Assembly (NCBI RefSeq): GCF_037042905.1
Contig: NC_087250.1
Span: 8,310,001 to 8,374,000, forward strand
Direction of reading: 5' to 3'
Length of the DNA: 64,000 nt
DNA from: Lytechinus pictus
Lineage: Eukaryota
Shown: piece by piece, positions 1,714-54,955 of the stretch
Position numbering within the stretch: the stretch's first letter is position 1
How the letters are laid out: each line of letters opens with the position of its first letter
Position numbers and translations under genes: made by a program
The notes under the pieces: generated by a model
The model's input: only the letters and a program-made list of their open reading frames with translations
What the model was told of the DNA's origin: nothing
Database searches by the model: none

Positions 1714-1905
1714 TGTAGACCTGTAGTGTGAACATATATAGATGCATGTGTTCTTCATTATTTCTTGATCATCCTCGATCTCTTCTCTTGTTAGTCGTCA
1801 ATATTCCATCTTTTCTTCCATCACCTTCTTTACATTCCCTTCAACATGCCAGATTCACTCTTCCATCCCTTTTTTTGTTCATGCTTTATTATGTTCACTC
1901 ATACT
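1714..1905 (+). repeat. 5' LTR, left fragment of the non-autonomous LTR element
   Basis: Starts TGTAGACCTGTAG and aligns by eye with 45227-45396. Confidence 0.85.
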
Positions 1906-1942
1906 CAGGGTGACCAGATTTCACAAAATGAAATACGGGATC

Positions 1943-3260
1943 TAGAGGGCGGCAAAATCATGAGCGGTGCTAGATTAAAAAGTGCTAAAATGTCCAACCA
2001 CTGAACTAAGTTAGAAATACAAAGAGAAAACATATTGCATCTTGCCTTCTACGGCGCATTCTCGAACAATTGACCTAGCAAAATGGTGGCGGTCACTTAT
2101 CGAGTTCGCTGGCGATGTTTTGCTTGGGTGTACACGACTTCCACGTATTTCTAGTTCAGTGATTGAAGCGGGTAGTGCTGTTGTCGATAGGCCTCATATC
2201 GACATTGATGTCGACATACGAAGGATTTTCAAAATTCTGACATGTCGACATGCACGCACCCACATCGACATGTAAATATAAAATAAAAAGGGGTCTAGCC
2301 TAAAGTCACAAGTGTAAAGCTTAGCTGAGAAGTTAGAAGCATTTATCCACAGTAATTGGCGTGATTAAAAGGTTTATTCAGCTTAGCAGCGCATTAAACG
2401 AAAAAAGAATACCTGCGAGCTGTGCAGCAGCAGAAATACGTCAGTGCAGGGCCGGCCTGCCCGATCGAGCCGGCCGCCCTCGATCCCGACTCGCTCTAGA
2501 TCTATATCTAGCGCTATAGCGAGCTGAGCGTAGCGTAGTAGCATTCACCGTACCCATCCATCGCGTGCTTGATAAAACGTTGCTCCTAAATGCATTACTT
2601 TTCACATAAACGTGAGCAGCAGCGAACACGTGTTTTTGTCAAAGTTGTGACCGCCGCAATTCAGCGCTTACTTCATATCACGAAGTCACAGAAAACTTCC
2701 CTTCATTTGTTTGGAGATCGTTGCACGGATCGCCCCGTAAGTGATACTGAAATTATCGGTCGATTTTCATTATTTTTTATTGTCAATTTGAGGAGCTTGC
2801 GTTTGCAGCACATGTGTACCAGCGTATAATACGCAATGATCACTGTTGTAATTGGTGATTCTCAAATTGACTCCGAGTGTTATTGCGCAATGTTTTCGAG
2901 ACCGGATCGTGGTACAAAAAATGTGGATTAAATCGGTTATTTTGGAAGTGAATTCACTCCAGCTTGGTAAAAAATATGTTTTCCCGAACTGAGCCTGTAT
3001 TATATAGATCTAGTGTGGGGATATCACTCGTGTCAAGGTGAATACATTTAATTGAGAGTGTTGTTCCACGATCGAATGCTTTTTTTATGTTAGGGAGCCT
3101 AGGCTAGATTACGGTCCCCTTTTCATGTCGACATTGTCGATGTCGGGATTAATTTTTAAGCGACATGTCGACATTGATTTTTGTTTCCGACAACAGCACT
3201 AGAAGCGGGACATTTTAGCACTTTTTAATCTAGCACCGCTCATGATTTTGCCGCCCTCTA
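1943..3260. mobile_element. Non-autonomous DNA transposon with ~53-bp TIRs
   Basis: TAGAGGGCGGCAAAATCATGAGCGGTGCTAG... at 1943 and its reverse complement ending at 3260. The terminal TA may be a TSD. Superfamily uncertain. Confidence 0.75.
2173..3201 (+). mobile_element. hAT-type MITE, copy 1
   Basis: TIR TAGTGCTGTTGTCG; 8-bp TSD GAAGCGGG (2165-2172, 3202-3209); second copy inverted at 26273-27318. Confidence 0.92.
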
Positions 3261-3554
3261 TACGCATAACGTAACTAGGTTGCATTTACAAAGATGGCGA
3301 TGTCAACAAGTGTAAGTAAACTCTCTTCTACTTTTATTAATTCATATAATTCTGGCATCATTTTGTAACCATAACTATCCATTTTTTGCCAAACGTTGCC
3401 AACCAATATTTTTACCCATGTACAGAAGTGTTAAAACTAGAATCTAAACATAACTAGCAGTTTGGCGCATTTTTATAGTTGCATTTTTCTTTGGTGTGTG
3501 GGAGCCTATAAGTACAAATGCCAGGCGTAAGGGGAGTGACCATACGTACAGTAT

Positions 3555-4323
3555 TGTGACGGCCTCTAATCCAACTTTCAGCTGACACGGTTTTCTTGTC
3601 AGGATGCCACCGTGCCTGACCGTCAGTTGCGTTCGTTTGGTCAAAGTATATGACCGTTGCTGATGGTTTATGGAAAAGACTGATTAACAACCATCACCAA
3701 CCGTCGTCTCTGGTTTCTCCAGTCAGATCATCCGTCGATTGCAATCGATCACCTCTCTCGTCTCATTTCAGTCAATCGGACATCCGTCGACCATTCAATC
3801 ACCAGCATTCGTTCCGTACACCAATCATTTGATCCTTTATAACACTCAAAAGAACGTAGTCCAGAGTGCAGGTTCAATGCTTGATCTTTACCTTTAATTT
3901 CTCAAAGATATATCATTGTACAGAACAAAATGAGATACAAGAGATGAAGGGCAGCATTTGCACTACGGTAAAGGGCCGTAACACAGAGCTTCCTTAATGG
4001 AAGTTGGCTCCTCGTATTTATGCATTTTTTAACACTTCGATAAAACAGTTACTAAAGATGACTTCAACAACTACAATAACCTAATTAACTTTGCTAATCA
4101 ACCAGCTTTCTCGAATAAAACAACTGGATAATGCTTAGACAACTTTGCTAATAATAAATTAATCAAAAGGTTTCATGACAACTCCAACATGTTTATAAAA
4201 TGTGCGATTTTGGCTAATTTTCGTTAAATCATAGAACGTATACACATACGATTTCCATATAGTCTACGTTTACAGACCCTATAACATCTCTATGACATTA
4301 AATCGGAAACATAGTTCGTTACA
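3555..4323 (-). repeat. Gypsy 3' LTR
   Basis: Direct repeat of 10625-11393 (offset 7070); no differences seen by eye. Confidence 0.97.
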
Positions 4324-4325
4324 CG

Positions 4326-4340
4326 ACTCCCTCCTCTCTC
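4326..4340 (-). promoter_or_regulatory. Polypurine tract of the Gypsy element
   Basis: Minus strand GAGAGAGGAGGGAG just upstream of the 3' LTR. Confidence 0.85.
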
Positions 4341-4662
4341 GAGCTTGGTCCCCAAGCTAATTAATAACAAACTGTCAACTACTAAACAGAAGGTAACGAA
4401 AAACTCCAAAACAACATAATTTCAACTTTAAGTTTCGAAACACAATAAAGACTTTGTCATATAATTTCTTGTAACAGGTAATTCAGTACAACTTTTTTTT
4501 ATACAATGCAAAGCAACACTGAAATTATGCATTGATTAAAGTCCACAAAAGTCAATATTTTTGACGTCCGGTATCCGTAAAAAGCTTGAAGATTGCAATT
4601 GAGTTCATTATCATGTATCCTTCAGAACTGGTAACTTAGTCCTGGTTAAAGTTGTAGGAAAC

Positions 4663-7600
4663 TCATGTCACAAAATAATCCCGCAGGTATGTAGCAGGTC
4701 GTCTGTCACGGGAGGGATACCGTCTGGCTGAAGTTTCTTTTTCAGGTGTGGTTTCTCCTGTAGCAGTGGGTAATTGTTCATTAGTTGTACCCCCTGCTGT
4801 TGCTCCATCTGTTGCGTCTGCTGGACTGTTGTCTGGTGGCTCTCCAGGTACATCGTCATTGGGTGGAATGTCTCCTGAGGAGCTTTCCAAAGTGTGGTCG
4901 TCCGCCGAAGCTTCATGTGGTTCACCTGCAAGGGTATCATCTGCGGCATGGCTTCTGTCTGGTGGATCTCCAGGCACATCAACATCTGGCATAACGTCTT
5001 CTGGGGAACTTTCAGTATCATGGTCAGTTGTTAACGTGTCATCTTCTGGTCTATCAGATGCGTCTTCACCTGCTGGCGTCTGGTCTGGTGGGTCTCCAGG
5101 CACATCAACATCTGGTAGGATGTCTGCTGGGGAGTCGGTTGTGTCATGCCTGTTGGCACTACTTGGCGAACTTTGTCCTGATTCTTCATCCGCTGAATTC
5201 TCCGGGACCAAGTCTTCTCCAGCGGGTCTGAATTCCCAAGTGGGAAGCCTTACGCCTTGATAGGGCTTCAGCCTGTCAATGTGTACGACCAGTGGTTTAG
5301 ACCTCCGTGACTGTTGAATCCTAACTGTGACATCTGACAGGCGAGTAACAACTAGGTAAGGGCCAAGCCATCGTGGTTGCAGTTTCGGGCAGCGGCCCTT
5401 TTCTCTGGTTTTCTTTCGTAGCCATACAAATTGTCCCACAGCATAAAGAGCTGTATGCACCTTCCTGTCGTAGAACGACTTCTGCCGACGACTCGCTGTC
5501 TTCAAGGATTCTCTTGCTACCTTGTGAGCTCTTTCTAGACGATTCCGGAGCCTGGCACTGTAGTCTGTCTGGTCATCATATTCGGCGGTCTCAGGAGGAG
5601 GGAGATCCCAGTCCATAGGCATGGTTGTTTCTCGCCCTAACATTAACATGTTGGGTGTTTCACCGGTTGATCCCTGGGGGCAACTTCTATAAGCACATGT
5701 AGCGAAGGGGATGAATTGATCCCAATTCCTTTCTCCATCCATGTCCAGGAATGCAGCGATTGTATCCACCAGGGTACGGTTGTACCTTTCGACTAGCCCA
5801 TCGGACTTGGGATTATAGGCAGTGGTTCTGGTTTTGGTGACTCCCAGGATCTTGCAGACTTCTGTGAAGACTTCAGACACGAAGTTGCGCCCCTGGTCTG
5901 AATGGATATACCTAGGAACCCCAAACCGACATGTAAACTCTGTGACAAGTTTCTCTGCCACCGTCTCAGCTTTCTCATCGGGGATTGGGTATGCCTCCAT
6001 CCATTTTGTGAAGTAATCCCCAACGACAAGAACATACTTGTTGCCATTGTCGGTCTTGGGTAGAGGGCCAAGGATGTCTAAAGCAATCCTCTCCATGGGT
6101 GAACCACTTATTCTTTGCTGCAAGGGGGCTCGTCTTGTTTGGCCATGTACTTTCCGTCTAGCACAGATGTCACATTCTCTTAGAGCAGAACGGAAATCCT
6201 CTTTCATTCCGACCCAGTAATACTTTAGTCTAGCCCTTCCCATTGACTTTTCCACGCCAAAATGACCTCCAGTTAAGGTTGCATGAGTCTCCTGGATGAT
6301 GTCCTTGATCATGACTTTTGGGACGACCAACTGCCGGCGAATTGTTGCTCCATCCTCAGATTCCCAGCGTCGGTAGAGTACCCCATCGATGACAACAAGT
6401 GCTTCCCAGTGTTCAAGGAGTCTTCTAGCTTTAACTGACCATGATGCACTTTCTTCCTCCAAAGGTTTGGTTGCTGAGGTCTTTGCATTCAGCACAGGGC
6501 TGATATTCTCGTCTTCTCGTTGTAAGTCACCAATGTTTGTTGCTGGCTCGGGTGCAACCTCCCATGTAGCCATAATCTGTCCAACACAACCTTCATCCTC
6601 CCGGCAGCACTGCAAACAAGGTTTCCGGGAAAGACCATCAGCATTCGCATGACTCCGTCCCTGCCTATGTTGGATGTCAAAGTCGTACTCAGCTATAATC
6701 TCCATCCATCTAGCAAACTGGCCTCTTGGATCTTTAAAGTGAACCAGCCATTGCAGAGATCCATGGTCTGTTCTGATGGTGACATGTCGGCCATATAAGT
6801 ATTGGCGGAACTGCCTCAGGAATACCACCACTGCCAAAAGCTCCTTCCTGGTGACACAGTAGTTCAGCTCTGTCTTGTGTAGAGTGCGACTAGCATAGGC
6901 AATCACCTTCTCGACACCTCCTTGCACTTGAGAAAGGACAGCCCCTATGCCCATGTCACTAGCATCGGTGTCCAAGATGTAGCGCCCTTCTGCAGATGGA
7001 TAAGCAAGGATAGGTGGAGTAATCAGTCTCCGTTTCAGCTCTTCAAACGCTTCCTGACACTCTTTTGTCCACTCAAATTCTCGGTTCTTCTCCGTCAATT
7101 GATGTAATGGTTTTGCCACCATTGCAAATCCCTTCACAAAGCGTCGATAGTAGGACATTAGTCCAATAAAGCTTCGGACTTCTTTAACGGACCGTGGAAT
7201 TGGCCAATTTCTGATGGCTTCTGTCTTTTCTGGGTCTGTTGTGACTCCATCTGCTGATACCACATGCCCCAGATAGACGACACTGGTCCGGAACAGATGA
7301 CACTTTGACGGTTTTAGCTTCAATCCAGATTCCCTCAAACGTTGGAAGACAATTCTTAGTCTAGCTAGTTCCTCCTCAACCGTCTCCCCATACACGATGA
7401 TGTCATCTAAGTAAACAAGCAACATCTTCCATGTCAACCCGGACAGTACTCTATCCATCAGCCGTTCAAAGGTGGCGGGCGCATTGCACAGTCCAAAGGG
7501 CATGACACGCCATCCATACAACCCACCATTGGCCATGAATGCTGACTTCAACTTGGCTTGTTCATCCAACTGGACTTGCCAATAACCACTGGCAAGATCT

Positions 7601-10344
7601 AGAGTTGAAAACCACTTGGCACCACTTAAGGAATCCAGGGTGTCGTCAATCCTGGGTAGGGGGTATGCGTCCTTCACTGTCACCTCGTTCAGTTGACGGT
7701 AATCTATACAGAACCGCTTGGTGCCATCCTTCTTGGTAACCAGAACAACATTAGACGACCATGGACCTGACACCGGTTCGACCAGCCCTTTAGTCAGTAA
7801 GTCACCAAGTTGCCTGTCGATCTCTTCCCTCTGGCCTGCTGGATGTCGTCTTGCTGGCTGTTTTACCGGTCTTGCATCCCCTGTGTTGATCGAATGCTGT
7901 ACCAGGCTGGTCTTCCCCAGGTCATTTGCACTTTGTGCAAAGATGTCTGCAAAATCCTGTAGCAATGCCACCACTTTTTCACGCTGGTGCTCAGGGAGTT
8001 GCTCTGTACTTCGTTGATACAGATTTTCTAGATGTTTTGGTACAGAGTTCGACATCTGGTCAGATTGGGGACAGCGGGCTTCCTCCATATCTTCTACTTC
8101 TTGAATCGAACTCAAACTTGCCACCATCATGCCCTTCTTGACAGTGGTTTGCCTTCTAGTTGAGTTGAAGATCCTTATTGGCAAAGTTTCTGCATCTGCT
8201 GGAACCACAGCCCTGGCTACTAGGAGGCCCTTCTTGCTCAATTCTGTCGAACTGGTAGGGGCTTCCAACAATCCGACCCCGCTAATGGTCATGGAGTTAC
8301 ATCCAGCCACTTCTCCTTTGAGAACAACCTCATGCCCGGCAGGGACGATACTGGTTTCGGAGGCCACGACTCTGCAGCAAAAGTGTCTGCCCTCCTGGTC
8401 TTTACATGGGATGGATTGCCAGGGTGTTCGAAGTTCCATCTTATGGCAATCTAGTTCAGCATGCATCTGAATTAACAGGTCAAGACCGATGATACCCTCA
8501 TTCTTCAATGTAGCCACGGTCAGTTCGACCATGAAGACCAATCCTCCAATGTGCAGTTCCATCGCGGCTTTTCCCCTTGTGTCTAAAGGTGATCCATCAG
8601 CCTGCTGCACCGTGTTATTCATTTCCTCCAAGACTGGCTGCTTTTCCTTGTCGATCATGTTGAAAACATTGTCGGCAATAAAAGATTGCGACGATCCAGT
8701 ATCAATCAGGAATGTTACTGACTGCCCATTGACTTCAGACTCAATGAAAATGCCTTGCCGCTTGACGTTTCCTGACGTACCAACTCGAACTTGTCCAGCT
8801 CCTGGTTGGCCATCCGGTCTAGATGTTTGCTGTCTGTTCCCTCCTGAATCTTTTCCATCTGGACTGGAATGACTGGATTGCCCCCTCTCAATATCTAGTA
8901 GATTATTTGGGCAGTCCTTCTTGAAATGTCCGGTTCCATGACAAAGGTGACAGCGTTTGGTGTCTTTCTCTTCATAAGGACAATTTCGGGCGAAATGTCC
9001 CTGCTGTCCGCAGTTATAGCAGATTCCGTCATACTGTCGTCTCTTTTGGAGTTGCGGTCCGGTGTTGCCTCCCTGTGACGCACTGCTTACATATTTGGTT
9101 AGCAAATCCAACCTAGCTGTAAGATCAGCTAGCATCTTTTCCATCTTTCTAACGACTTCTGCTGTATTGGGGCTAGCAGGGCTCTGCGGCTGCTCATTGT
9201 TGGTCAGTGCCCGACTATGACTGTGCCGGGGAGAATGTCTGAATTCGCTTCGCTCTGTCTCCATCTTAAGGAATGCCTCTGTGTTCAGAGCTGCCTGTAT
9301 GGCCTCATCCAAGGTACGTGGTTGAGCTCGAAACAGACCTTCTCGAATTGCCGGGTTCACCACTGCATCCATGAAATGACTTCGGGCTAGTTTATCTTGA
9401 CCATCTGGGTCAAACTCTTGATAGGCCATCCCTGCCAGGTCTCGGATGCTTTGCCCAAGTTCTTGGAGTGTCTCTTGTGGCTTCCTACGTCGTGCTCTTA
9501 GCTCTGCTAGAAATACATCAGCCTTCCCTGAAGGACCAAAACGTTGTTTAAGTCTGTTGACCAACTCCTGATATGGCAGCTCCATCTCACCATGCTTCGC
9601 CAAAAGTTTCAGTGCCGGACCCCTCAAACTAGCTGCCAGGAAATGTGATGCCTGCCTGTCCGTCCAGTTGTTGATGACAGCACATGCCTCGAAATGCTCC
9701 AAGTAATCAAGGATTGGAGCCTTCCCGTCGAAGCGATCTGGTAACATGCAAGGCTTTGCATTAATGTCCTCTGTTTGTCCTTTGAAAGATGGTCGATTAT
9801 TAAATCGATCATGGTGGTCGCTCATTCGGCCAGGGAATTGATAGTTTGAGGCAGTTTCATCCCTAACTGGAAACTGTTGGTACATCTGAGGACTATATGA
9901 CCCAGGAAAGGAAGGCCGAGGGCTCTGCCGAATTCCCTCTACTGTGTGGTCAGACGTCGTAGGCAAGTTATCAAATGTTTGGTGGGAATTTCCTACAGGC
10001 GGCATGCGTGGATAACCGATAGGAGTTGTTGAGTCAGCCGCAATCTCATGTGCGGTACTCCCTCTGATCAGCCTTCTCGGTTGAAGAGATGGTTCTGTTT
10101 CTCGCACTCCGTCATTCATAGCCGATGTCCTAACGCCAGTGGGAGGCATGCTAGCAATCCCTGTATCACCAGAATGTTGGAAGAGCGGAGTGCTCTGCTG
10201 TGAGTGACGACGTGGCAGTGGAGACCCAGATGTTCGGTGCAAATCAGTGAGTTGTTCGTTGATTTCTGTAATATGGTCTTCCACTTGTTGGATCAGCTCC
10301 GCAGGTGTTAAATGATAAGCAGGATTCCCCTGTACTGCTTCCAT
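4663..10344 (-). CDS. gag-pol: Gag-Pol polyprotein, 1893 aa (Gag with two CCHC knuckles, aspartic protease, RT, RNase H, integrase with GPY/F motif)
   Basis: Motifs CYNCGQQGHFARNC and CHLCHGTGHFKKDC; LIDTGS; LVYLDDII; LDTDASDMGIGAVL; HHCC zinc motif; DILGP/DQGRNF/VERYN; WLGPY. Uninterrupted ORF. Confidence 0.97.
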   Translation of the reverse strand: MEAVQGNPAYHLTPAELIQQVEDHITEINEQLTDLHRTSGSPLPRRHSQQSTPLFQHSGDTGIASMPPTGVRTSAMNDGVRETEPSLQPRRLIRGSTAHEIAADSTTPIGYPRMPPVGNSHQTFDNLPTTSDHTVEGIRQSPRPSFPGSYSPQMYQQFPVRDETASNYQFPGRMSDHHDRFNNRPSFKGQTEDINAKPCMLPDRFDGKAPILDYLEHFEACAVINNWTDRQASHFLAASLRGPALKLLAKHGEMELPYQELVNRLKQRFGPSGKADVFLAELRARRRKPQETLQELGQSIRDLAGMAYQEFDPDGQDKLARSHFMDAVVNPAIREGLFRAQPRTLDEAIQAALNTEAFLKMETERSEFRHSPRHSHSRALTNNEQPQSPASPNTAEVVRKMEKMLADLTARLDLLTKYVSSASQGGNTGPQLQKRRQYDGICYNCGQQGHFARNCPYEEKDTKRCHLCHGTGHFKKDCPNNLLDIERGQSSHSSPDGKDSGGNRQQTSRPDGQPGAGQVRVGTSGNVKRQGIFIESEVNGQSVTFLIDTGSSQSFIADNVFNMIDKEKQPVLEEMNNTVQQADGSPLDTRGKAAMELHIGGLVFMVELTVATLKNEGIIGLDLLIQMHAELDCHKMELRTPWQSIPCKDQEGRHFCCRVVASETSIVPAGHEVVLKGEVAGCNSMTISGVGLLEAPTSSTELSKKGLLVARAVVPADAETLPIRIFNSTRRQTTVKKGMMVASLSSIQEVEDMEEARCPQSDQMSNSVPKHLENLYQRSTEQLPEHQREKVVALLQDFADIFAQSANDLGKTSLVQHSINTGDARPVKQPARRHPAGQREEIDRQLGDLLTKGLVEPVSGPWSSNVVLVTKKDGTKRFCIDYRQLNEVTVKDAYPLPRIDDTLDSLSGAKWFSTLDLASGYWQVQLDEQAKLKSAFMANGGLYGWRVMPFGLCNAPATFERLMDRVLSGLTWKMLLVYLDDIIVYGETVEEELARLRIVFQRLRESGLKLKPSKCHLFRTSVVYLGHVVSADGVTTDPEKTEAIRNWPIPRSVKEVRSFIGLMSYYRRFVKGFAMVAKPLHQLTEKNREFEWTKECQEAFEELKRRLITPPILAYPSAEGRYILDTDASDMGIGAVLSQVQGGVEKVIAYASRTLHKTELNYCVTRKELLAVVVFLRQFRQYLYGRHVTIRTDHGSLQWLVHFKDPRGQFARWMEIIAEYDFDIQHRQGRSHANADGLSRKPCLQCCREDEGCVGQIMATWEVAPEPATNIGDLQREDENISPVLNAKTSATKPLEEESASWSVKARRLLEHWEALVVIDGVLYRRWESEDGATIRRQLVVPKVMIKDIIQETHATLTGGHFGVEKSMGRARLKYYWVGMKEDFRSALRECDICARRKVHGQTRRAPLQQRISGSPMERIALDILGPLPKTDNGNKYVLVVGDYFTKWMEAYPIPDEKAETVAEKLVTEFTCRFGVPRYIHSDQGRNFVSEVFTEVCKILGVTKTRTTAYNPKSDGLVERYNRTLVDTIAAFLDMDGERNWDQFIPFATCAYRSCPQGSTGETPNMLMLGRETTMPMDWDLPPPETAEYDDQTDYSARLRNRLERAHKVARESLKTASRRQKSFYDRKVHTALYAVGQFVWLRKKTREKGRCPKLQPRWLGPYLVVTRLSDVTVRIQQSRRSKPLVVHIDRLKPYQGVRLPTWEFRPAGEDLVPENSADEESGQSSPSSANRHDTTDSPADILPDVDVPGDPPDQTPAGEDASDRPEDDTLTTDHDTESSPEDVMPDVDVPGDPPDRSHAADDTLAGEPHEASADDHTLESSSGDIPPNDDVPGEPPDNSPADATDGATAGGTTNEQLPTATGETTPEKETSARRYPSRDRRPATYLRDYFVT

Positions 10345-10419
10345 GTTCGACAGCTTAATTCAGAAAATGGTGATTGTCAACTTTTGTAAACCGATTGATC
10401 TTTCTCCAATTTTTGCTCC

Positions 10420-10595
10420 AACCAAGTCCTTCGCCAACCAGTTCTGCACCAACCAGTCCTTCTCCAACCAGTTCTGCACCAATCAGTCCTTCTCCAACCA
10501 GTTCTGCACCAACCAGTCCTTCTCCAACCAGTTCTGCACCAACCAGTTCTGACCAACCAGTCCTTCTCCAACCAGTTCTGCACCAACCAGTCAAA
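10420..10595. repeat. 30-bp minisatellite in the Gypsy 5' leader
   Basis: ACCAGTCCTTCTCCAACCAGTTCTGCACCA units made of two related 15-mers, about 5 copies. Confidence 0.9.
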
Positions 10596-10604
10596 CCAGC
10601 AGCA

Positions 10605-10622
10605 ATCCCACTTCTGACACCA
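10605..10622 (-). promoter_or_regulatory. Primer-binding site complementary to tRNA-Leu (CAA/CAG type)
   Basis: TGGTGTCAGAAGTGGGAT, 2 nt from the 5' LTR, matches the recalled tRNA-Leu 3' end ATCCCACTTCTGACACCA. Confidence 0.85.
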
Positions 10623-10624
10623 CG

Positions 10625-11393
10625 TGTGACGGCCTCTAATCCAACTTTCAGCTGACACGGTTTTCTTGTCAGGATGCCACCGTGCCTGACCGTCAGTTGC
10701 GTTCGTTTGGTCAAAGTATATGACCGTTGCTGATGGTTTATGGAAAAGACTGATTAACAACCATCACCAACCGTCGTCTCTGGTTTCTCCAGTCAGATCA
10801 TCCGTCGATTGCAATCGATCACCTCTCTCGTCTCATTTCAGTCAATCGGACATCCGTCGACCATTCAATCACCAGCATTCGTTCCGTACACCAATCATTT
10901 GATCCTTTATAACACTCAAAAGAACGTAGTCCAGAGTGCAGGTTCAATGCTTGATCTTTACCTTTAATTTCTCAAAGATATATCATTGTACAGAACAAAA
11001 TGAGATACAAGAGATGAAGGGCAGCATTTGCACTACGGTAAAGGGCCGTAACACAGAGCTTCCTTAATGGAAGTTGGCTCCTCGTATTTATGCATTTTTT
11101 AACACTTCGATAAAACAGTTACTAAAGATGACTTCAACAACTACAATAACCTAATTAACTTTGCTAATCAACCAGCTTTCTCGAATAAAACAACTGGATA
11201 ATGCTTAGACAACTTTGCTAATAATAAATTAATCAAAAGGTTTCATGACAACTCCAACATGTTTATAAAATGTGCGATTTTGGCTAATTTTCGTTAAATC
11301 ATAGAACGTATACACATACGATTTCCATATAGTCTACGTTTACAGACCCTATAACATCTCTATGACATTAAATCGGAAACATAGTTCGTTACA
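10625..11393 (-). repeat. Gypsy 5' LTR
   Basis: Direct repeat of 3555-4323. Confidence 0.97.
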
Positions 11394-12161
11394 GTATATT
11401 ACTTTCACTCCCCAAACGCCTCCAGGCTTCAACACCGTCGTAAGTCTAACTTCTTGACTAAATCAAAGATAGTAAGCTACTTGTCCGCTAACCATTTCAA
11501 GAAAGGCAAGATCGGGGGCGCTAATGCAGTTTCGCACCCGCCGATTACAGTGCTAGCATACCTCATCACTAATAGGCTAGCAATACTTTGTCCCAAATCA
11601 TGTCTTGTCATGACTAGCCTGGAGGTGTCTGGGAGTAAAATTATTTCTACTACATGTATATGTAGGCTTACTCCCCATGATGCCTGGCAAGGCATTGGGC
11701 CACACGAAGGAGAGTTTTTTGAGAAAACAATGTTGCTCCAAAATATTTGATTTATTTAACTTGCTTATCACTCAATATTGTAAATGGAAAAGAAGTTCAT
11801 TTCCCCCATTAGGCACTTATAAAGTTTTTTACACGAAAAATAATACAAATATTAAGAAAAATCATGTGAGAAGATGAGCAGATACTCACCGATGATCTTG
11901 TCGCCATATTTCCTTCTTTGTTCGTAGCCTAGTTAAAAGACGTGTATAAGAGAGGGCGACGATATCATGAGCAGTGCCAATTAAAAAAAAAAAAATTCAG
12001 CCGATGATAATCGTGAATTATAAAATACTTGCATTAGCCAATAAATATTTATGTGCTAAGCCTACGTATAGTAGAAATAATTTTACTCCCCAGATGCCTC
12101 CAGGCTAGTCATGACAAGTCTCTCAGTCACATTTCGTCGTCAATATACCCACTGCTTTTCC

Positions 12162-12621
12162 GGCGCTAATGCAGTTTCGCATCTGCCGATTACCAGCATA
12201 CCTCATCACCAATACTTGTTCCCAGATGTCATGACAAGTCTCTTGGTTCACATTTCGATATCAATATACCCACTGCTTTCCCAAATATTGTAAGGGGTAA
12301 CGGCTGTATTTTGACTGCGATCTCGAAGACATCGAATCCTCAGTCAAACACCGCTTTGCTCACATTATTTGGTTGCTAAATTCAGTCCATATTCACATTA
12401 CAGTGATGGCAAATCCAAGCGATCTGCGAAGCGATGTCTACGGATTAGATCAACGAGGTCAAGATCGAAGCCGAAATACAGCCGTTCCCGATCAGGATAT
12501 TTTGAAAAGGAGTAGGTATATTGACATCGAAATATGACTGCGAGACTTGTCATGACATTTGGAACAGATATTGGTGATGAGGTATGCTGGTAATCGGCCG
12601 GTGCGAAACTGCATTAGCGCC
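12162..12621. mobile_element. Palindromic MITE with GGCGCTAATGCAG termini
   Basis: Long inverted arms; another left-end copy at 11517. No TSD found, so superfamily is unassigned. Confidence 0.65.
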
Positions 12622-28502: not shown

Positions 28503-28767
28503 TTAATAACTGGGAGGCTGTTAGCTGCCTTTTTACTTTCAAGTCTTGCACATCTTTTGAGACCAAATTTGTGATGCCTGGGTACGCTGTTCCGAAATTT
28601 TGCAACATTTTTATGTATTAATCCAACACAAATACTGTTTCTTGCTAAAAATTCACAATTAGTATATCAGTAATATACATTTATCAAGATTAAAGTCAAA
28701 TTATTTAATTACATTTATAATCATAAAAACTTTGATAAAGTATAAAAAAAAACCAAAGAGTTGTATG

Positions 28768-30186: not shown

Positions 30187-30622
30187 AAGCCCATCAAAAA
30201 ACAGAATTATGTCATGTACAGCTAATTCATTTTGCGTGATATTACAATTGTAATTGTTTACTTGAGCAAGTAATTTGAATTGCTGCATGACCTAAACAAT
30301 AACATGTTCCAATTCGAATAGTAACATGACCTAAAGAAGAGTTACTCCACGTCGATTGAGAGTGCTTATGTTAAATAATTGATGTTGCTACTTCAAATAA
30401 TTGAGGTCAATCAAATTGGTCAATTTTGAGCTATATGTCATAATTAATTAGGTCATATACTAATTGAAATTACTAAATGGCTCGAGTAGGTATGAATTCA
30501 CGTTGCCACATGACCTTAATTATTTTATGTAGCAACATCATGTATTGAACGTCATTTAGTTATCAATTATGACATGTAGCAAATCAAATTACATGCCGCA
30601 ATTTCGTGTTTATGATGGGCTC
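30187..30622. mobile_element. Palindromic MITE (Harbinger/ISL2EU-like)
   Basis: AGCCCATCA...TGATGGGCT termini with long imperfect inverted arms, flanked by AT. Confidence 0.55.
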
Positions 30623-31124
30623 ATGCTTACATTCATATATAACCCTTCAATACGTAGTTGGAGCAATTCTTAGACAAGAAGACTGTGTAAAACAATGATA
30701 TGCCTATTCAATGTCAAAAAGGTTAATGTCTCAATAGATTTGATCTACGTTTTGGCAAAGTAATCTTATGTTCATATTTTTTCTAACCTATGGTGAACAT
30801 TCTAAATCATGTGAAATTCATTCAAAAATATCTTTCAGTATTTATGGACTTAAGTGAATTCTAAGCAAAATGAAGTGATTATGATTACGTTCATGTACTT
30901 TAAGTTTATACTGGTGATCAACACATCATAATTTCATCCCTTACTGTATGTGCACCATGCACATGCATTATCTGTACATGCAGAAGTGGTTATCCATTGT
31001 TTCATAACATGGTTGAGTAAAGGATGTTCTGCTTTTAGTATTAAGCCAATCGGGTGTTGACAAGAAGGGGAAAATGCAATTGCTCAGCTATTACAGGTTT
31101 TTTTGCAACCATAATACTGGTTAA

Positions 31125-31295
31125 GCCTTGGTTACATTCGCCGGCTCGTGGCCTTACGTCGAGTCAAAATTAGCAGTTTTAATCATCCTTGTACCAGCTA
31201 CTACCAGCTACACGTGGGTGGTTTGTACAGGAATACCTAAAACTGCTGATTTTGTCTCGCCGTAAGGCAACCGGTCAAGGAATGTGACCAAGGTA
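31125..31295. mobile_element. Small palindromic MITE
   Basis: CCTTGGTTACATTC...GAATGTGACCAAGG arms flanked by TTAA/TAA. Confidence 0.55.
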
Positions 31296-33049
31296 TTAAT
31301 AATAATCGCTTAATGTTGTGTTAGAGGGAAGGATTCTGGGTCGAATCTAGCTTTCTTTATGTGATCTCAAAATGGCAGCAATGTATGAATAGTGAAAGTA
31401 GTTCATGTGGCATCTCAATGTTGGTGGATATAAATCTTTGTACATGTATTATCCTAAAGATGAAATGTTACTGCATTATTCTAGCAGTCATTTATGATAT
31501 CAAAGATGTTCTATACTGTGCATAGTACAACTCATACATAATAAAGGTATGTGAATATGCTTTTAACGTCTTTGCAAATTTGTGGGTTTTTTCACCCCTC
31601 TTTTCATTAGTCAAGATGTGAAAGTTGTTGTGCTGGATCACAGGAAATTCTTACAAACTACTACGCCTAACAAACCAGTGCAGGACGGTGTCGTGAGAAA
31701 ATCGCACAGACTACTACAGGACAATACCATAGGATTGTCACAGGAAATCAACAAGAATATCCCTTCAGGATTACCACAGTAAAGTATCACAAGAAGGCTG
31801 CAGGATGAGACCGATAATGCCACAGAAGATATCAAAGAACAGTATCACAGGAATACCACAGGACAGTACTGCAGGAATTGTCCTGCGGTAAGGTCTCTTG
31901 GTATTCCTGCAGTACTGTCCTGTCCCTGATAGCAGAAACTGGTAAAAATGACGTCATAATTACGTCAGTTTAACGACGAGTGTCACGTCATTTTGACGTC
32001 GTATCATGACGTCTTATTGACGGGATCTTGCACCCGCGAATAACGTCATTATGACGTCGTATATTGACGTCATTATGACGTCTCCAAGAGTGACTACGAC
32101 GTCTTAATGACGTCTTAGCAACGTTTTTACAACGTTTTCCTGACCAGTATCAAGGGTCAGAATGACGTCGTGTATTGACGTGATTATGACGTCTTCGAGA
32201 GTCAACAACGACGTCTTAATGACATCCGTGTAACGTGTTCCTGACCGGTTTTAGACGTCATATTGATGTAATTATGACGTCTTTAAAAGTCATCTACGAC
32301 GTCTTAATGACAACTTTGCGACGTATTCCTGACCAGTTTTAGACGTCATATTGATGTAATTATGACGTGTTTATAAGTCAACTACGACGTCTGAATGACG
32401 ACTTTGCAACATATTGCTGACTAGTAATAGACGTCATATTGACGTCGCATATTGAAATGAATATGACGTCTTTTGGAGTCAACTATGATATCTTAACGTA
32501 TTCTGACGTGATAATGACCTAAACATTAAATTCTACATGCAATGTACATACACACATCACTTCAAAGACCTTGTCATTGAGGATTATCTATATTTGGTGA
32601 ATACTGAGGTGGTCTGACAATGTCCAGCATTCCCAGTAACAATATAATGATCCTCCATGCCAGGGCCTTGCATAACTTGTCTCGGTCTCAAGAACATGAC
32701 CCCCCCCAAAAAAAAAAAAGAATATATACAAAAATGGAAAACGAAATCAAATACATGTACGCATTTCAATTACGAAATCGTGGCAAATATTCTATTAATA
32801 AATAAAAGTTGCATAACATATTACCAGCAAAAAAAAAAGGAATACAAAATGTTGAAAACTCTAAATAGATTGAAAAAAAAAAACACTTTTCTATGAAAAT
32901 GCAGTATTAGGGTCAAAGGAATGAAATTACAATGTTTGTTATACCAATACATACAATTGTACATGTATAAATACACATTAATACATAACAGAGGCATAAT
33001 GATCTCCAAGAATAAAGCTTTTTCGTTGAAATTGTAATTAAATATACCT

Positions 33050-34350
33050 TCAACTTTAGACAACTATGTAATGTAGGTAAAAATATACTGTATGTAAAAA
33101 AAAATACCCGAGTTGGAATAGTTTCAGGATTTATGGAAGCTCGCATTTGGGTGAAAGAATCATACATGTACATTAATTCTTATGAAATGTTTGGGTTGTA
33201 TTACACTATCACTTAGGGCCAGGGGTAAAAGACAGTAGTTGCAGCAAACAATTATTTCTTCGGAAAGTCTCTTAAATTAAGGTTAATTGTCAAAATATTG
33301 TACATAATCTAGATCTGGGCCCTGTCTTACAAAGAGTTACGATTGATCCGATCAATCATAACTCTATGGAAATCCATCAGTGTCATAATTTTTTCTACGA
33401 AAAATTCGCACAATGTCCTTTGTATGCAAAGAGAAGCGCAGCGAATTTTTGAGAAAACAATGAATGCATGAACATACATCATAGCTAGAAAATATTTTGA
33501 ACAAACATGCTTAATAGATGTTAACGTTGCTGACCGTCCATAGTTGCGATTGATCGGATCAATCATAACTCTTTGTAAGACGGGGCCCTGGTAAATTAAT
33601 GTAAACTTGTATCTTTGTAAAATCATGAATTTTGATCTTAAAATCAATAATTCTGATGATCACTAACACAGAAAAGCATATGTGGGACAGGACAGTGTAT
33701 TATGATTGATTTGAAAAATATCCGACATTTGATAGAATTACATGCTTATTTTGCTCATTTTTCAGCAATTACACATTTTCTTCCCGAGCTTTTTGGCACA
33801 CATCTTTTATATATACATACACTTTGCTGGTAATTCTGTTGGATTCTGTTCGAACTCATTTGAAGATAGTTACTACTAGAGGTGCGCTATTAACTTAAGG
33901 CAACTATGCAATGTAGGACAAAATATACTGTATGTAAAAAAAAAAAATACCTGAGTTGCAAAGTTTTCAGGATTTATGGAAGCTTGCATTTGGGTGAAAG
34001 AATCATGCATCAATAAGTCTGATGAAAATAGTTTGTGGAACTGTTGTATTACACTATCACTTAGAAGGAAAAGACAGTAGTTGCAGCAAACAATTATTTC
34101 TTGAGAAAATCTATAAAATCAAAGTTCATTGTCAATATATTGTACATAATCTACATCTGGTACATTAATGTAAACTTGTATCTTTGTAAAATCATGAATT
34201 TTTTAACTTAAAATCGATAATTCTGATGATCGCTGTAAACACAGAAAAGCATATGTGGGACAGTGTATTATAATCGATTCGAAAAATATCTGACATTTGA
34301 TAGAATTACATGCTTATTTTGCTCATTTCTCAGCAATTACACATTTTCTT
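33050..34350. repeat. Two adjacent diverged copies of one repeat
   Basis: 33050-33890 matches 33890-34350 once the 270-bp MITE is removed. A partial third copy lies near 37920-38160. Confidence 0.75.
33318..33587. mobile_element. Harbinger/PIF-type MITE
   Basis: GGCCCTGTCTTACAAAGAG termini; CTG TSD; empty site in the paralogous copy near 34157. Confidence 0.88.
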
Positions 34351-34694
34351 CCCTACATGTAGCTACGTAGGCTTTTTATGTGAGCTGAGAGATTTCATAC
34401 CAGATTTCCTTTGCTTGATAAAGTTCTTTAATATGATAGTCTGTGTATCAGCATAGCATGTGTTCAGTGTTTTGAACCCACTGGAAATTGTGCATCATAT
34501 CTTTATGTATGGAAGTCATTTTGCGTCTACGGTCTCCATGGTTTTGTCAGGATCTATGTGTTGACTAGACCAGTCCCATATTGATATTTTCGTGCTGTGT
34601 CACTTTGGAAGGCCGTCTCTAATTGGTTGACTGGTGAGTTGGCAGATGCACAGCCCATCCCACTTTTCAATTATATCATTACGTAATCTCTAAC

Positions 34695-35311
34695 ATGTCT
34701 AAGATATCCACCAGATCAAGAGGCCGTTTGCACTCGGCTAACGCATGTACACAATCCTCTGCTTCATCATTAACTGGATCTAAACAAAGCCCAGCATACC
34801 TAGATCATATTGATACAGTCGTTCAAAGAGCGGTGGCCGTGGCAATGGAACGCGAGAGACAAAAACTCAATGATGACATGGATAAGCGCGAAAATAAATT
34901 GCGTGAAATTCTTGATGAAAAGCTCACTAGTCTACACGTTCTTGAAATATCTATCGATACTAAATTGAAGCAACTCCGTGATTTTGAAAAATCGGTTTCT
35001 GATAACATGACTAACACCATAATGCTTTGTCAAATAGGCTTGACCACATCGAGCAGTACTCCTGTCGCAATAATATCCGTATCCGTATGAGATTGTTTGA
35101 AATGTAGCAAAGCAGATTGGTATCGATCTTACTCCATGTGACATTGATCGATCCCATCACCTTTGCCGACCAACTAGCAGTCATGATGTTCAACCCAAAG
35201 GATCATACCCCGGCGTGGCCCTGTAATGCCAACTTAGCAGCTCCACCAATCAATGTGAAATTCACTTCATACAGGCCGAAACAAACGATGATGAAAAATA
35301 GAGGAAAATGA
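34695..35311 (+). pseudogene. Degraded LINE ORF1 (CR1/L2-like)
   Basis: Coiled-coil segment followed by frameshifted QYS.RNNIRI, DIDRSH and PINVKFTSYR motifs typical of these ORF1 proteins. Confidence 0.65.
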
Positions 35312-36477
35312 AAATGCTCAGGAACAGATGACTGGGTGCAGGCAGGCAAGGCAGTTCAGGTGGGATGAAAATTTATTGGCAGGACACCTTCCGTTTCAAA
35401 TTACAGCATCTGCAAAAATAACAGAAGAGGAGAAACATAAAAACTTTTTCTACATAAACTATTTATTAATCTTCATTAAAAATTAGATGGTTTCAATATT
35501 AATTTCCAATTTATTTTAAATGATTAAAAAACGATGTGGGGTTTGTTACATATTTTATACTTCAAATATTAACATGTTAAGTCAAGTCGGGGGGGGGGCA
35601 TGATGCCTTCAAGACCTTTAACCATCTCTGTATAAGGAAGGGAATTTTAGAATCAATTTATTTGACACATAAAACATATTATTTTTTTATAATTACAATT
35701 TTAATTCATGCCTTTTTTATGTGTTTTAAATGGTTATGGGGTAACCAGGACTGTCAGGACCGAGAATTCGAACTTCGAGGCTGAAATACAGCCATTCCCT
35801 ATGCCTGATTTGGCTTAAATTCAGGTCAAGGATCAATTAAATATATATTTTGAGAAAAAAAATCTGACAAATTTAGAGGTGGAATTAGTTTTCTGGCATC
35901 GCGAGATCGACCAATGCAAAATTTTATTAGTGCCAATTTACCATCTAAACTTGTCATTGAAATTAGAACGTCCAAACCGATCTAGTACCAGTACTAGCAC
36001 AATGAATCAATCAGCTATGCATGTGCACCAATTCTGTATTTCTTGCATACGTACGTCACTCGAGTTATGGTTCATGTCATTGCGTTATATAGCGTGGGAA
36101 TTGTAAGAAAGTGATCCTTCAAAATTTTTACCTTCCAACAATTAACATTTTTTAAGCCTTTGTATGCATTTAGAGTACAAAAGCTTACAAATTGGACAAA
36201 TTAAATGTTTGCCCCAAAATTATTGTGGGAAGGGTGGATTTTCTAGTGAAATCCATCCTAGTGTACAAAGTTCTACAGGCAACAGAGATTTGTCTAGGCT
36301 CCGTGAATGAAAATACAATGAAAAAATATCACAGAGTCCTCGAAGTACAGTCAGGACCATTAACAGATTATAAGGTGCCCCGAGTTTGTGCACACCCAAA
36401 TCTGCGTGATTCTGATAATAGAGGTTCCCAATGATCCCCCCCCCAAAAAAAGGCTTTACATCTGAAATAGCCTTCTA

Positions 36478-36670
36478 ACTTACCTACTGCCCGATGCCTC
36501 CTATCATGTAGGGCAGCAACGAAGGATCTCCACTCCTGGCATCCAGCGATTCTGGGCCTTCTTCTGGAAACTCCCCCAGGCCAGGTCATATTCACTGACT
36601 TCATCTCCTCCTCAACTCCTCATGTGTGACACCGAGACAGGTGGTTTTGTGTCTCCCTCTCTTTCTCCTG
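36478..36670 (-). mobile_element. 3' end of an RTE-type LINE
   Basis: Minus strand encodes RRKRGRHKTT, VEEEMK..NMTW and QEWRSFVAALH, resembling the RTE ORF C-terminus. Confidence 0.7.
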
Positions 36671-36766
36671 AAATGTCAAACAGATCTATTCATTAAAAAT
36701 CTTACTCAAAATGGTGCTTTTGGTAGAAAAATAATGAATATAGGGCATTTCATGTGACGCCCTTAA

Positions 36767-37539
36767 CCCTTATTAAACTGGGGGGGGGGGTCAATTTGAC
36801 CCCCCCTCAACAAATTTCATCACTACGCTGTCGTGCAAAAAAATTTGATCGCGCCGCTCACTGACTTTTTACTTTCAAGTCTCGCGCAAATTTTGAGACC
36901 AAATTTGTGACGCCCGGGTACGCGGTTACGACATTACGCAACATTATGTAAGTGCATGTCAGACCCAAAATTGCTCATAAACATGATTTCATGTACAAAT
37001 CCAATGCAAATTGTGTATTTAGCCAAAATTCATAAATTTATCATTATTTCTACTTTTACTGATTAAACTTAATTAATTTTGCCTTGTTTATGATTAGAAT
37101 TAAGTCTAGAACGATTTCCATCGAAAATACAATAAAAAACAAAATGTAAAAAAACAAAGAAATACATGATTAAAAAAATAATAAAATACATAAGAAATCG
37201 GTCTTGGTACCAGATTTTTTTTCATTCACAATTGTTAGGAATGCTATAAAGAATATTTTCACCCAAAAAATAGCATTCTAGGAGCTTTATTTAGTGAATC
37301 AGAGCAAAAAGTATGATTTCATGAATAAATTAGCATAATTAATTCATATAGAATAAAAAAATATGAATTCAGTGAAATTTACCAATGCAACTACGTAGAT
37401 TACGTCATTCTCTACCATCATGCAAATTTTCGTTGTGATCGTGCAATCCACGGCCGAGATCTTATAAGGGGGGGGGGGGCAATAATACCCCCCCCCCCCC
37501 GGGAATGACAAGAATCTAAATACCCTGGTAGATTTAGGA
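36767..37539. mobile_element. piggyBac-like MITE
   Basis: TTAA on both sides, CCCT start, and related copies elsewhere in the window. Confidence 0.7.
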
Positions 37540-37599
37540 TTAAAAAAATTGTCAGTACGGTATATCATCGAGGATCTACATAGTAGGATGGGGGATCGG

Positions 37600-37824
37600 G
37601 TGTCCGGACACTTTATATTTTTGAAGCCTTCTTTTTTGTCTTTGGATTACACTAAAAATATGATTTATGAATTCAATAGTTATATTTTATAATCATCTTC
37701 GATTTTGTTCTCTCTAATATTTCCTAACATTTTGAACTAAAAATTGATTGATGAAACTTCGCTTGTAAATTTTTCCAAATTACTTTCTAAAATTGATCGT
37801 CCGGACACACAACAACTGGGTATA
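37600..37824. repeat. GTGTCCGGACAC repeat, copy 2
   Basis: Matches 545-748. Confidence 0.6.
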
Positions 37825-39443
37825 CCGGTACATGTAGATCTGGTACAGTTACATAAACTGAACTTTGTGAAATCTTGAAATCTACGCTGAAAAATGTTCA
37901 AACTGAAGATCACCAACACAGATAAGAGCACGTGGGACAGTTATTATTGCTCTGATTAATGTCGGCCCGACGCTTGCCTTGGCTCGAGTTGACCCGAATC
38001 CTGTGCTTTTTTTGCTTATTTCGCAGCAATTACACAATTTCTTCCAGAATCCTTTGGCACATACGGTATATTATTTATAAATATAGACAGACACTTTGGT
38101 GGTCATTTCATTGGATTCTGTACGAACTCATTTTGATATCGTTACCACAACTGGCATTAAAGTGTGCACTGTCTGTGTCTGTGCAGACTTGGGCCCTGAG
38201 CCCACCAGCGCAGCCTGTCCTATTCAGCATGCCGGCGCTCGGGGCAGCCACCCCGGCCGGGTAGTGTCAGTGCACGAAATCTAAAGCCAAACAAAGGCAA
38301 GCCGCGCTCCGAAAATAAAATCTTAGAAGATGGTTATCTAACTTACTGTTTGGTCTCCTGCGAATGCCTTCGAAGTCGTTATCCAAATCTGAACCGTGTT
38401 CTTAAAGTAGTAGAACTATTATTAACGGCCATCTTCGTCGCACTTAATTCTCGATCCAAAATTAGGCTGCAACATTTACGGCGAAAAACGGGCGCAATCC
38501 TTTTTCAAATTAAATGGTTGCGACTGCGCCAGTTGCATGCAGTGCAGCGCGCATGCGCAGGCTCGACGCCCGGCGGCGAATTATGATTTTTTTATAGGGG
38601 GTGAGCCCGGGGGGCGTGCATGGGGGGGGGGGGGGTGAGCTAACTAGATAGGAGGTTTGCATGACACCGGGGCATGACACCACTTGCGAAAAAAAAGTTT
38701 TAAAATAGATACAAACTTCTTTGACATATAAAGCTTCCTCTTGTTTGGTTTGGTTGGCAACCAGTTAAGAAATGATTATTTTTGCCACTGCTTTTGAAAC
38801 TTTTTTTCTTTGAAGAATTATATACTTTACCTAAAATAAAAAAAATTCTGTACTATTTTTTTTTAGTTTTACTTTTCCTTTTATAAGTAGAAATAGCCTT
38901 GCTAACATGGCAAGGTTGAAAAAATGGCAAAATAGTATGTGGCTTTGAAATTAAACTTGTAAATTTCCTCGTCGTTGATTGGTAAAATTTGATGTCATAA
39001 TCACGTCGTAATGTGGTCATATGAAAACGCAAATTTCTTTGTCGTTGTTTGGTAAATAAATGATGTCATAATCACGTCATAATGTGGTCATATAAAAATG
39101 CAAATTCATTTGTTGCAGATTGGTCGATAAATGACGTCGTAATCACGTAATAATCTGGTCATATAAGAAAGCAAATTTACTTGTCGTAAATTGGTCAGTA
39201 AATGACGTCGTAATCACGTCATAATCTGGTCATATAAGCGAGCAAATTTACTTGTCGTAAATTGGTCAGTAAATGACGTCAAAATCACGTCATAATCTGG
39301 TCAAATAAAAATGCAAATGAAAGTTGCCATTCTAAGTCGTCAAAATGACGTCGTAAGAACGTCATAAATACGACGACATGACGAGTATTACCACTTTACG
39401 ATCAGTTAATGACGTCATTACGACCGTGTCTGCTATCAGGGGT

Positions 39444-40292
39444 AGTACTGTTCTGTAGTACTTTCCTGTGATACTGGTCTGCGGAATTCCTAAAGTACTG
39501 TCCTGTCATACTGTCCTGTGATACTATTTATCACCACAGGATAGTATCACAGGACAGTACTACAGGAATACCAGACCAGTATCACAGGACAGTACTACAG
39601 GAATACCAGACCAGTATCACAGGACAGTACTACAGGAATACCAGACCAGTATCACAGGACAGTACTACAGGACACAGTACCAGAAGCCTGCGGTATTCCT
39701 GCAGTACTGTCCTGTAGTACTGTTCTGTAGTACTTTCCTGTGATACTGGTCTGCGGAATTCCTAAAGTACTGTCCTGTCATACTGTCCTGTGATACTATT
39801 TATCACCACAGGATAGTATCACAGGACAGTACTACAGGAATACCAGACCAGTATCACAGGACAGTACTACAGGACACAGTACCAGAAGCCTGTGGTACTC
39901 CTGTAGTACTGTCCTGCGATACTGTCCTGTAGTACTTCCCTGTGATACTGGTCTGCGGAATTCCTGTAGTACTGTCCTGTCATACTGTCCTATCATACTA
40001 TCATGTGATACTATCCTGTGATATTCCTGTGATACTGTCCTGTAGTACTAGTAGTGGTGTGGTAGTGGTTGTAGCTGTTGTAGCGGTTGTGGTGATCGTG
40101 TCCTGTCATACTTCCTGCCATACTTATGCGGTTATTACCACAGGAAGTATCACAGGACACGGACCTGTTGTACTCCTGTTGTACATTTCTGTAGTACCGT
40201 CCCAAATTACGTGCACGTAATTCCTGCAGTACTTTCCTGCGATACTTCCTGCAGTACATATCACAGAGTACTACAGGAATTTTTTGTAAGGG
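39444..40292. repeat. CAGGA/TCCTG subterminal array and right terminus of a CMC/EnSpm-like element (continues at 31676-31923)
   Basis: TATCACAGGACAGTACTACAGGAA units in both orientations ending ...TTTTTGTAAGGG. No matching left TIR found. Confidence 0.65.
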
Positions 40293-40817
40293 GACAATCG
40301 ACAATTAAATTAGGCTACAGTACACCTGTGAAAAATTATAAAGAATTGGAAGGGAGGGTGAACGAAAGAATGAAGGAGAGAAAGAAAATACGAAAGAAAA
40401 GAGATGAATCGATCGAGAAGAAAGAAAAAAAAATTAAGGGGAAAATGAAGTGAAATAAAAAAAAGTTAGAATAAAAGAGAGAAAAAAGTTTCCGTCATTC
40501 TTTGAATTGAATACAGAAAGAAAGAAAAAGAAAGGAATGGAAGAAGAATAAATGTGTGAAAGACAAAATAAAGGAGAGAAAGAAAAAGAGAAAGTAAGAA
40601 AAAGGAGGAGGAAAGAGAGAAAGAATGAAGGAAAGAAAAATGTTTCCTTCATTCTTTGAAAGAAAGAAACAAACAAATATTCTGAAAAACAAAACAATAT
40701 TCTGAAATACGGGACAAATAGGCGTCCCGGGAAGGGTTTGTCGGGACGCCGGGACAAAGAAGCAAAATACGGGACAATCCTGGGAAATACGGGACGTCTG
40801 GTCACCCTGCTCATACT

Positions 40818-52129: not shown

Positions 52130-54955
<2,826 letters not shown>

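Follow-up and report, generated by a model that had tools for sequence, protein, structure and literature searches.

The question raised by the 64,000-nucleotide stretch of Lytechinus pictus DNA considered here (NCBI RefSeq assembly GCF_037042905.1, contig NC_087250.1, positions 8,310,001 to 8,374,000 of the forward strand; hereafter the window, on which all positions given below are numbered) is whether a 38.9-kb block with the terminal features of a hAT transposon represents one giant mobile element or a small one whose ends have been driven apart. The initial annotation of this DNA had offered both readings, a giant cargo-carrying hAT or a small miniature inverted-repeat transposable element (MITE) grown by serial insertions. 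The evidence assembled below favours serial insertion, at least 51.5% of the block being secondary and no inner pair of ends being present; the giant option acquired no positive support, without being refuted. It was shown that the outer insertion took place once and that 20 kb or more of the interior is secondary. The outer copy is judged to be probably a small hAT element expanded in place by serial nested insertions, and the block resembles an ordinary mobile-element nest, not a giant cargo carrier.

On the forward strand the 13-bp sequence CAGGGTGACCAGA occupies 1906-1918; its exact reverse complement occupies 40797-40809, and the window contains no other perfect match. The terminal inverted repeats (TIRs) thus defined start with CAGGG, are perfect over 13 bp, agree at 15 of 17 positions going inward and diverge thereafter; past the 13-bp repeat, the two arms of the outer element show no extended inverted similarity. 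Each end adjoins a copy of the 8-bp sequence CTCATACT (Table 1), and the claim that 13-bp TIRs lie 38.9 kb apart, each beside this octamer, was consequently borne out by exact matches; measured end to end, the outer copy is 38,904 bp long. When 60 simulated windows matched to the dinucleotide make-up of the window were examined for paired 13-bp inverted sequences bordered by an 8-bp duplication, none (0/60) contained such a pair. The two ends also share the motif AATACGGGA, which the window contains exactly four times, always on the forward strand (1932, 40706, 40766 and 40786): one copy is 26 bp in from the left end and the other three belong to the right end, an arrangement that is direct and not inverted. 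The right end additionally contains a dense cluster of CGGGAC/GTCCCG, 6 of the 13 window sites of which fall in 40710-40795. A scan of the window revealed no second internal pair of hAT ends and no inner cluster of the end motif. One TIR-like inner site, at 20271 with two mismatches, was rejected as a chance match: it has no end motif, and a site of this kind is within chance expectation.

Comparison with a neighbouring paralogous repeat then supplied an uninterrupted reference for the insertion site. Joined together, the flanks of the outer element (1716-1905 and 40818-41058) were identical to 45229-45690 at 383 of 403 aligned positions (95.0%), with 12 gaps, and that second copy was confirmed to read through a single CTCATACT at 45388-45395, as the initial annotation had maintained for the copy starting at 45227. 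Since one insertion event with an 8-bp duplication parts the two halves of the host repeat, everything between them came with or after that event; the further claim that the whole 38.9 kb arrived at or after one insertion is therefore upheld by the 8-bp duplication, the inverted ends and the paralogous empty site in combination. Only part of the accompanying description of this copy as a paralogous long terminal repeat (LTR) stood: its paralogous and uninterrupted character was confirmed, while a direct repeat was all that could be demonstrated of its supposed LTR nature. The host direct repeats begin with TG and are about 430-460 bp long, their spacing being ~740 bp once the hAT copy and the element at 41076-44509 are removed, and inspection by eye revealed neither a flanking duplication nor a recognisable primer-binding site, leaving the identity of the host as an LTR retrotransposon unproven. 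The host may instead be a local duplication or a small element with terminal repeats, and this doubt leaves the use of the paralogous copy as an empty site unweakened.

Most of the space between the host repeats is occupied by a PIF-like DNA element at 41076-44509. An 8-mer present in its TIR, AATACGGG, also serves as a subterminal motif of the outer hAT copy, a shared feature that may be coincidence. As a host unit of ~1.6 kb has taken two DNA transposons, the neighbourhood can be described as insertion-rich.

The TIRs of hAT elements begin YARNG, a rule with which the CAGGG start of the outer TIR fits. Consensus target sites are nTnnnnAn for Ac and nnnTAnnn for Buster; in the single site available here, CTCATACT, position 2 is T but position 7 is C, and positions 4-5 read AT, not TA. 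The outer element displays two hallmarks of hAT transposons, a duplication of 8 bp and short inverted ends within the 10-25 bp range, features that are listed together with a usual size of 2.5-5 kb in PMC3942097. The end sequence of Blackjack elements was not found in the literature looked through, and both the Blackjack label and the end motif stated for it in the initial annotation are unconfirmed.

Coding content was assayed on two size classes of open reading frame (ORF). Outside the nested Gypsy element, none of the 86 ORFs of at least 70 amino acids reached a Pfam cut-off, and none of the 150 scanned ORFs of 45-69 amino acids (from 212 listed, those in already-assigned repeats being excluded) matched at E<=0.001. 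These scans thereby corroborated the reported absence of a transposase, no hAT transposase with its BED finger, RNase-H-like core and hAT C-terminal dimerisation domain being detected in the element. With no transposase, and with hAT-like ends and duplication, the outer element is classified as a non-autonomous hAT-type copy; with no protein-family match outside the Gypsy element, no gene cargo is visible. A 294-bp segment at 3261-3554 is a candidate for the native left arm of this copy. Within it, at 3290-3325, an ATG in good start context is followed 18 bases on by GTAAGT, a configuration that resembles a first exon plus splice donor and could be either a remnant of the first exon of an ancestral transposase or a product of chance.

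Five insertion sites were identified in the block; the six elements that they hold, each with its own ends and duplication, make up 20,047 of the 38,904 bp (51.5%), a nested share that rises to 65% if the inverted satellite block of 5,368 bp is added. The inner elements are nested up to three levels deep, the hierarchy on the left being a 1,029-bp element within a 1,314-bp MITE within the hAT copy within the direct repeat (Table 1).

Table 1. Positions and characteristics of the features recognised in and beside the outer hAT-type element, in order along the window
Feature	Position	Strand	Characteristics
Left copy of target-site duplication CTCATACT	1898..1905	.	Sequence match
Left end of outer element	1906..1944	+	13-bp TIR CAGGGTGACCAGA and one AATACGGGA; truncated at 39 bp by nested MITE
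Tc1/mariner-like MITE, 1,314 bp	1945..3258	.	Outer 40 bp of TIRs perfect; TA duplication 1943-1944 / 3259-3260
hAT-like non-autonomous element, 1,029 bp, inside MITE	2173..3201	+	TIR TAGTGCTGTTGTCG; 8-bp duplication GAAGCGGG; third nesting level
Candidate native left arm of hAT element, 294 bp	3261..3554	+	Putative assignment; ends in half of short hairpin split by Gypsy insertion
Ty3/Gypsy LTR retrotransposon, 7,839 bp	3555..11393	-	769-bp LTRs, 100% identical; duplication GTAT
Mosaic of short palindromic MITE-like units	11398..13484	.	No clean duplications
Degenerate copy of Tc1-like MITE end, in mosaic	near 11949-11990
Unit of ~460 bp, in mosaic	12165-12618		57-bp inverted ends
Near-perfect palindrome of 624 bp, in mosaic	12819-13442
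Inverted satellite block, 5,368 bp	13485..18852	.	Arms of 160/328-bp tandem units, 850 nt 95% complementary
Non-coding interior, 5.2 kb, no element assigned	18853..24098	.	Tandem duplication of ~494 bp at 21637-22727 (88.6% identical); (AAT)n run
TIR element, 1,494 bp	24099..25592	.	Ends ACCCAGGACCAAAATCCA... 30/33 positions; duplication AGT; tandem repeats inside
Second copy of 1-kb hAT-like element, 1,046 bp, inverted	26273..27318	-	Own 8-bp duplication GTTTTCAT, differs from GAAGCGGG
Non-coding interior, 4.4 kb, no element assigned	27327..31709	.	Local inverted repeats 28876-29023 vs 29303-29444; no duplication
Probable TIR element, 8,334 bp	31713..40046	.	Ends ACTACAGGACA... 29/33 positions; duplication ACT
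Right arm of outer element	40050..40796	+	CAGGAC-like repeats to ~40285, purine-rich stretch, then (A)ATACGGGAC / CGGGAC cluster in last ~100 bp
Right 13-bp TIR of outer hAT-type element	40797..40809	-	Exact reverse complement
Right copy of target-site duplication CTCATACT	40810..40817	.	Sequence match
Non-autonomous TIR element, PIF/Harbinger-like	41076..44509		27-bp perfect ends GGCCCGTATTCC... (GGCCCGTATTCCATAAACGAGATAAGC); 3-bp duplication CTG; ~6.5 internal 158-bp tandem repeats
Uninterrupted paralogous host-repeat copy (empty site)	45227..45690	+	Single CTCATACT at 45388-45395

Among the elements with duplications of their own, the Ty3/Gypsy retrotransposon is apparently intact and very young. 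Its single open gag-pol frame of 1,898 amino acids contains, in order, a zinc knuckle, protease, reverse transcriptase, RNase H and integrase, and its identical LTRs mark it as the youngest layer of the nest; the point of insertion corresponds to the loop of a short hairpin (3521-3554 / 11398-11428). The probable 8.3-kb TIR element is recognisable from arms that mirror one another in their repeats, with CAGGAC-type short repeats in the outer portions and GACGTCA-type 88/71-bp tandem repeats in the inner, and from an arm similarity that ends sharply at the termini. Repeats of the CAGGAC type run on just outside it, at 31638-31712 and 40050-40285, as if the element had been inserted into an older relative. 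Its TIR starts (ACTACAGGAC...) in a manner akin to that of the 1,494-bp element (ACCCAGGAC...), and both contain subterminal or internal tandem repeats; the two may share one superfamily. An atlas look-up of the longest unassigned ORF, at 34638-35087, returned a best score of 0.77 and no family.

The remainder of the interior consists of blocks for which duplications were not detected. Units related to the ~460-bp and 624-bp members of the palindromic mosaic recur as half-units at 11517-11658 and 12063-12118, and the mosaic as a whole seems to comprise a family of hairpin MITE-like repeats. The arms of the adjacent satellite block, which are rich in GGCCGCCATCTTGGATTTCAAAATGGCGGCC-like palindromes, flank a 3.1-kb non-coding core; the block is plainly repeat-derived and could be either two satellite-bearing elements arranged head to head or a foldback element, but no target-site duplication was found at it and it was not counted as a proven insertion. 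A candidate MITE at 28876-29444 was likewise not counted, no duplication having been found. For the DNA left unassigned, chiefly 18853-24098 and 27327-31709, no copy was detected elsewhere in the window. Rfam and tRNA scans of the window returned nothing, so that no heads of short interspersed nuclear elements derived from tRNA or 5S RNA were recognised, and a search for retroposons by poly-A tract plus duplication yielded only 10-bp matches at chance level. Short dispersed repeats with 76-87% identity are common to the interior of the hAT copy and the DNA outside it (543-748 vs 37598-37824; 36844-37497 vs 57460-58046 and 59254-59569; 28281-28417), from which it follows that parts of the interior belong to multi-copy families.

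On this basis a course of events can be proposed in which a non-autonomous hAT-type transposon of small size, probably between a few hundred bp and a few kb, would have entered one copy of the ~440-bp direct repeat once, duplicating CTCATACT. It would then have acted as a landing pad, mobile elements hitting both it and each other, such that its ends were driven 38.9 kb apart by the TA-flanked MITE, the two 1-kb hAT-like copies, the Ty3/Gypsy element, the two TIR elements with 3-bp duplications and the satellite-bearing blocks. The remaining ~13.5-19 kb would likewise post-date the outer insertion, and the present structure would be immobile. The first nested insertion lies just 39 bp from the left end and parts the TIR from any subterminal sequence beyond it. 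Ac/Ds transposition needs subterminal sequence, and an insertion at this distance makes it unlikely that the present structure is a working transposon. Also in favour of growth in place are the insertion-rich neighbourhood, the lack of visible coding cargo and of inner ends, and the maize and Drosophila precedents described below.

A number of observations weigh against growth in place. Inner insertions with intact duplications look identical if they were gained before a move of the whole block; because nested insertions present the same appearance in either order, the nested share does not exclude mobility as a unit. That share moreover depends appreciably upon the 8.3-kb element, which rests on a 29/33 TIR, a 3-bp duplication and arms just ~66% alike, and the firmly nested proportion falls to 30% if it is set aside. 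Some 13.5 kb (35%) is tied to no insertion, including 18853-24098 and 27327-31709, within which fall the stretches that the initial annotation had named as non-TE interior (19000-23500 and, approximately, 27300-31600), the inverted satellite block and the palindromic units are without detectable duplications, and the interior yielded no retroposon signatures of the poly-A/duplication kind. Lastly, the two host repeats have diverged by 5% but the outer TIRs and duplication show no mismatch, a disparity that a fairly recent outer insertion would fit. By our own estimate, at a change of ~2.5% per copy the 42 bases concerned would be left unaltered in a substantial minority of cases, which is not unusual.

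The principal alternative, that the block or its ~31-kb pre-Gypsy version was mobilised whole by a hAT transposase working on the two distant ends, either as a cargo-laden non-autonomous hAT or as a macrotransposon assembled from the ends of two elements, was considered unlikely. It can draw on the fact that one perfect duplication and perfect TIRs enclose all 38.9 kb, on the ~13.5 kb of interior with no recognisable insertion boundaries, and on precedent: an Ac/Ds macrotransposon of maize mobilised up to 100 kb, mostly nested retrotransposons, as related in a section of PMC3260210, and the fungal ToxhAT is described in a passage of PMC12506042 as a 14-kb hAT-like cargo element. Yet a macrotransposon built from two elements should retain internal ends or a cluster of end motifs, neither of which was seen, no coding cargo is visible, and a mere 39 bp of native left end precedes the first nested element. 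Nor was a second copy found. There was no further copy of the outer element in the 64-kb window, and pattern scans for family copies retrieved five viral, two metagenome and six prokaryote-genome loci, none of which (0/13) exhibited BLAST similarity to the window beyond the pattern and all of which were for that reason regarded as chance matches; two stricter pattern scans returned zero loci. As these collections are almost entirely microbial, they say little on the family. That the block (38.9 kb now, ~31 kb prior to the Gypsy insertion) was mobilised and went in as one unit, and so constitutes a natural giant non-autonomous hAT element in an animal genome is accordingly regarded as distinctly doubtful. 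Growth of a small hAT copy mainly by routes other than transposition, through filler DNA introduced at double-strand-break repair, local duplication or inversion, or satellite expansion inside the element, was accorded little credence, even though it would accommodate the large structures that have no duplication (the 5.4-kb inverted satellite block, the 624-bp palindrome and other hairpin units) together with the ~494-bp tandem duplication and several tandem arrays of the interior, and even though intergenic DNA without transposon properties inside maize Ds elements is read as DNA capture in the relevant part of PMC3260210. Against it, ordinary insertions with duplications explain at least 51.5% of the block, and old or Helitron-like insertions would also be expected to lack duplications.

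An assembly artefact, in which two loci each with part of a repeat had been misjoined and the 38.9-kb spacing of the ends was unreal, was thought very improbable. The region is repeat-dense and includes identical LTRs of 769 bp and long inverted arms, circumstances in which misjoining might be envisaged, but both junctions exhibit the same 8-bp duplication, the flanks fit one continuous paralogous repeat, and each nested element is bordered on its two sides by matching ends and duplications, which random misjoins would break. Contigs from five samples with two other organism labels contained 0.42-0.50 of the sampled words of 31001-41000, unaligned matches that lend weak support to the assembly. 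The corresponding values for nine runs of a third organism label were 0.08-0.13, word shares not being used as a measure of copy number, polymorphism or presence in relatives.

Several further features of the window lie beyond the host repeats. On the minus strand, 52680-57406 comprises a long array with an 84-bp period encoding C2H2 zinc fingers, in which an ORF at 54956-57406 (816 amino acids) has 21 zf-C2H2 matches, more finger ORFs occur at 53333-54804, and an internal duplication (52947-53246 vs 54570-54869) is 99% identical. On the forward strand, an open frame of 680 amino acids at 46761-48803 matches DUF1759 and an aspartyl protease, with no reverse transcriptase or integrase following in frame; it resembles the gag-protease segment of a BEL/Pao-type retrotransposon. 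Across 60001-64000, where the window ends on the right, the guanine-plus-cytosine content climbs from about 0.37 to 0.46-0.53, a rise that may denote a gene or a CpG-rich region.

If the outer copy is indeed a nest, the locus is mainly an annotation matter, as ends and duplication alone would call a 38.9-kb transposon of which at least half came later. It also provides a clean case of dating by nesting, from direct repeat to hAT copy to MITE to 1-kb hAT-like element, with the Gypsy element placed as youngest by its identical LTRs, and it draws attention to one intact Gypsy element and to several DNA-transposon families of apparently recent date in the genome. Were movement as a unit to prove true, the range of sizes over which hAT elements naturally mobilise DNA in animals would be extended, and hAT transposases would be seen to carry non-coding DNA laden with transposons, in lengths of tens of kb, under wild conditions beyond the maize Ac/Ds system.

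Growth of hAT copies by nested insertion is already known from maize Ds, where Ds1 (~400 bp) grows to 0.8-24 kb and Ds2-13 to 12.7 kb by acquiring nested LTR retrotransposons and DNA transposons, according to Du et al. (2011, BMC Genomics 12:588, PMC3260210). As described there, Ds1 and Ds2 resemble the present copy in being small non-autonomous hAT elements with short TIRs and an 8-bp duplication whose ends have been driven apart by LTR retrotransposons and DNA transposons. The copy described here differs in being larger (38.9 kb), in having at least five inner insertion sites occupied by several superfamilies and nested three levels deep, and in residing in an animal-type genome, with a C2H2 zinc-finger array gene and BEL/Pao- and Gypsy-type elements, and not in that of maize. 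The Ac/Ds macrotransposon cited in PMC3260210 is comparable in that its two hAT ends stand tens of kb apart with mostly nested transposons between them, a block that can move and would produce one 8-bp duplication; unlike the present copy, in which there are no inner ends or motif clusters, it has a whole element at each end. ToxhAT of fungal wheat pathogens, as characterised in a passage of PMC12506042, is also hAT-like and, at 14 kb, far above the usual 2.5-5 kb given in the pertinent section of PMC3942097, but it carries genes and is found as a unit in several species, whereas here no coding cargo was detected and one copy is known. An animal parallel is found in Drosophila, where a section of PMC3942097 describes a copy of BuT2, a hAT element with 12-bp TIRs and an 8-bp duplication, that carries an insert of ~1.7 kb, likely a mariner, and thereby parallels the TA-flanked MITE at 1945-3258; that copy, as described there, contains one insert of less than 3 kb, in contrast to the multi-level nest that has accumulated between the ends of the copy described here.

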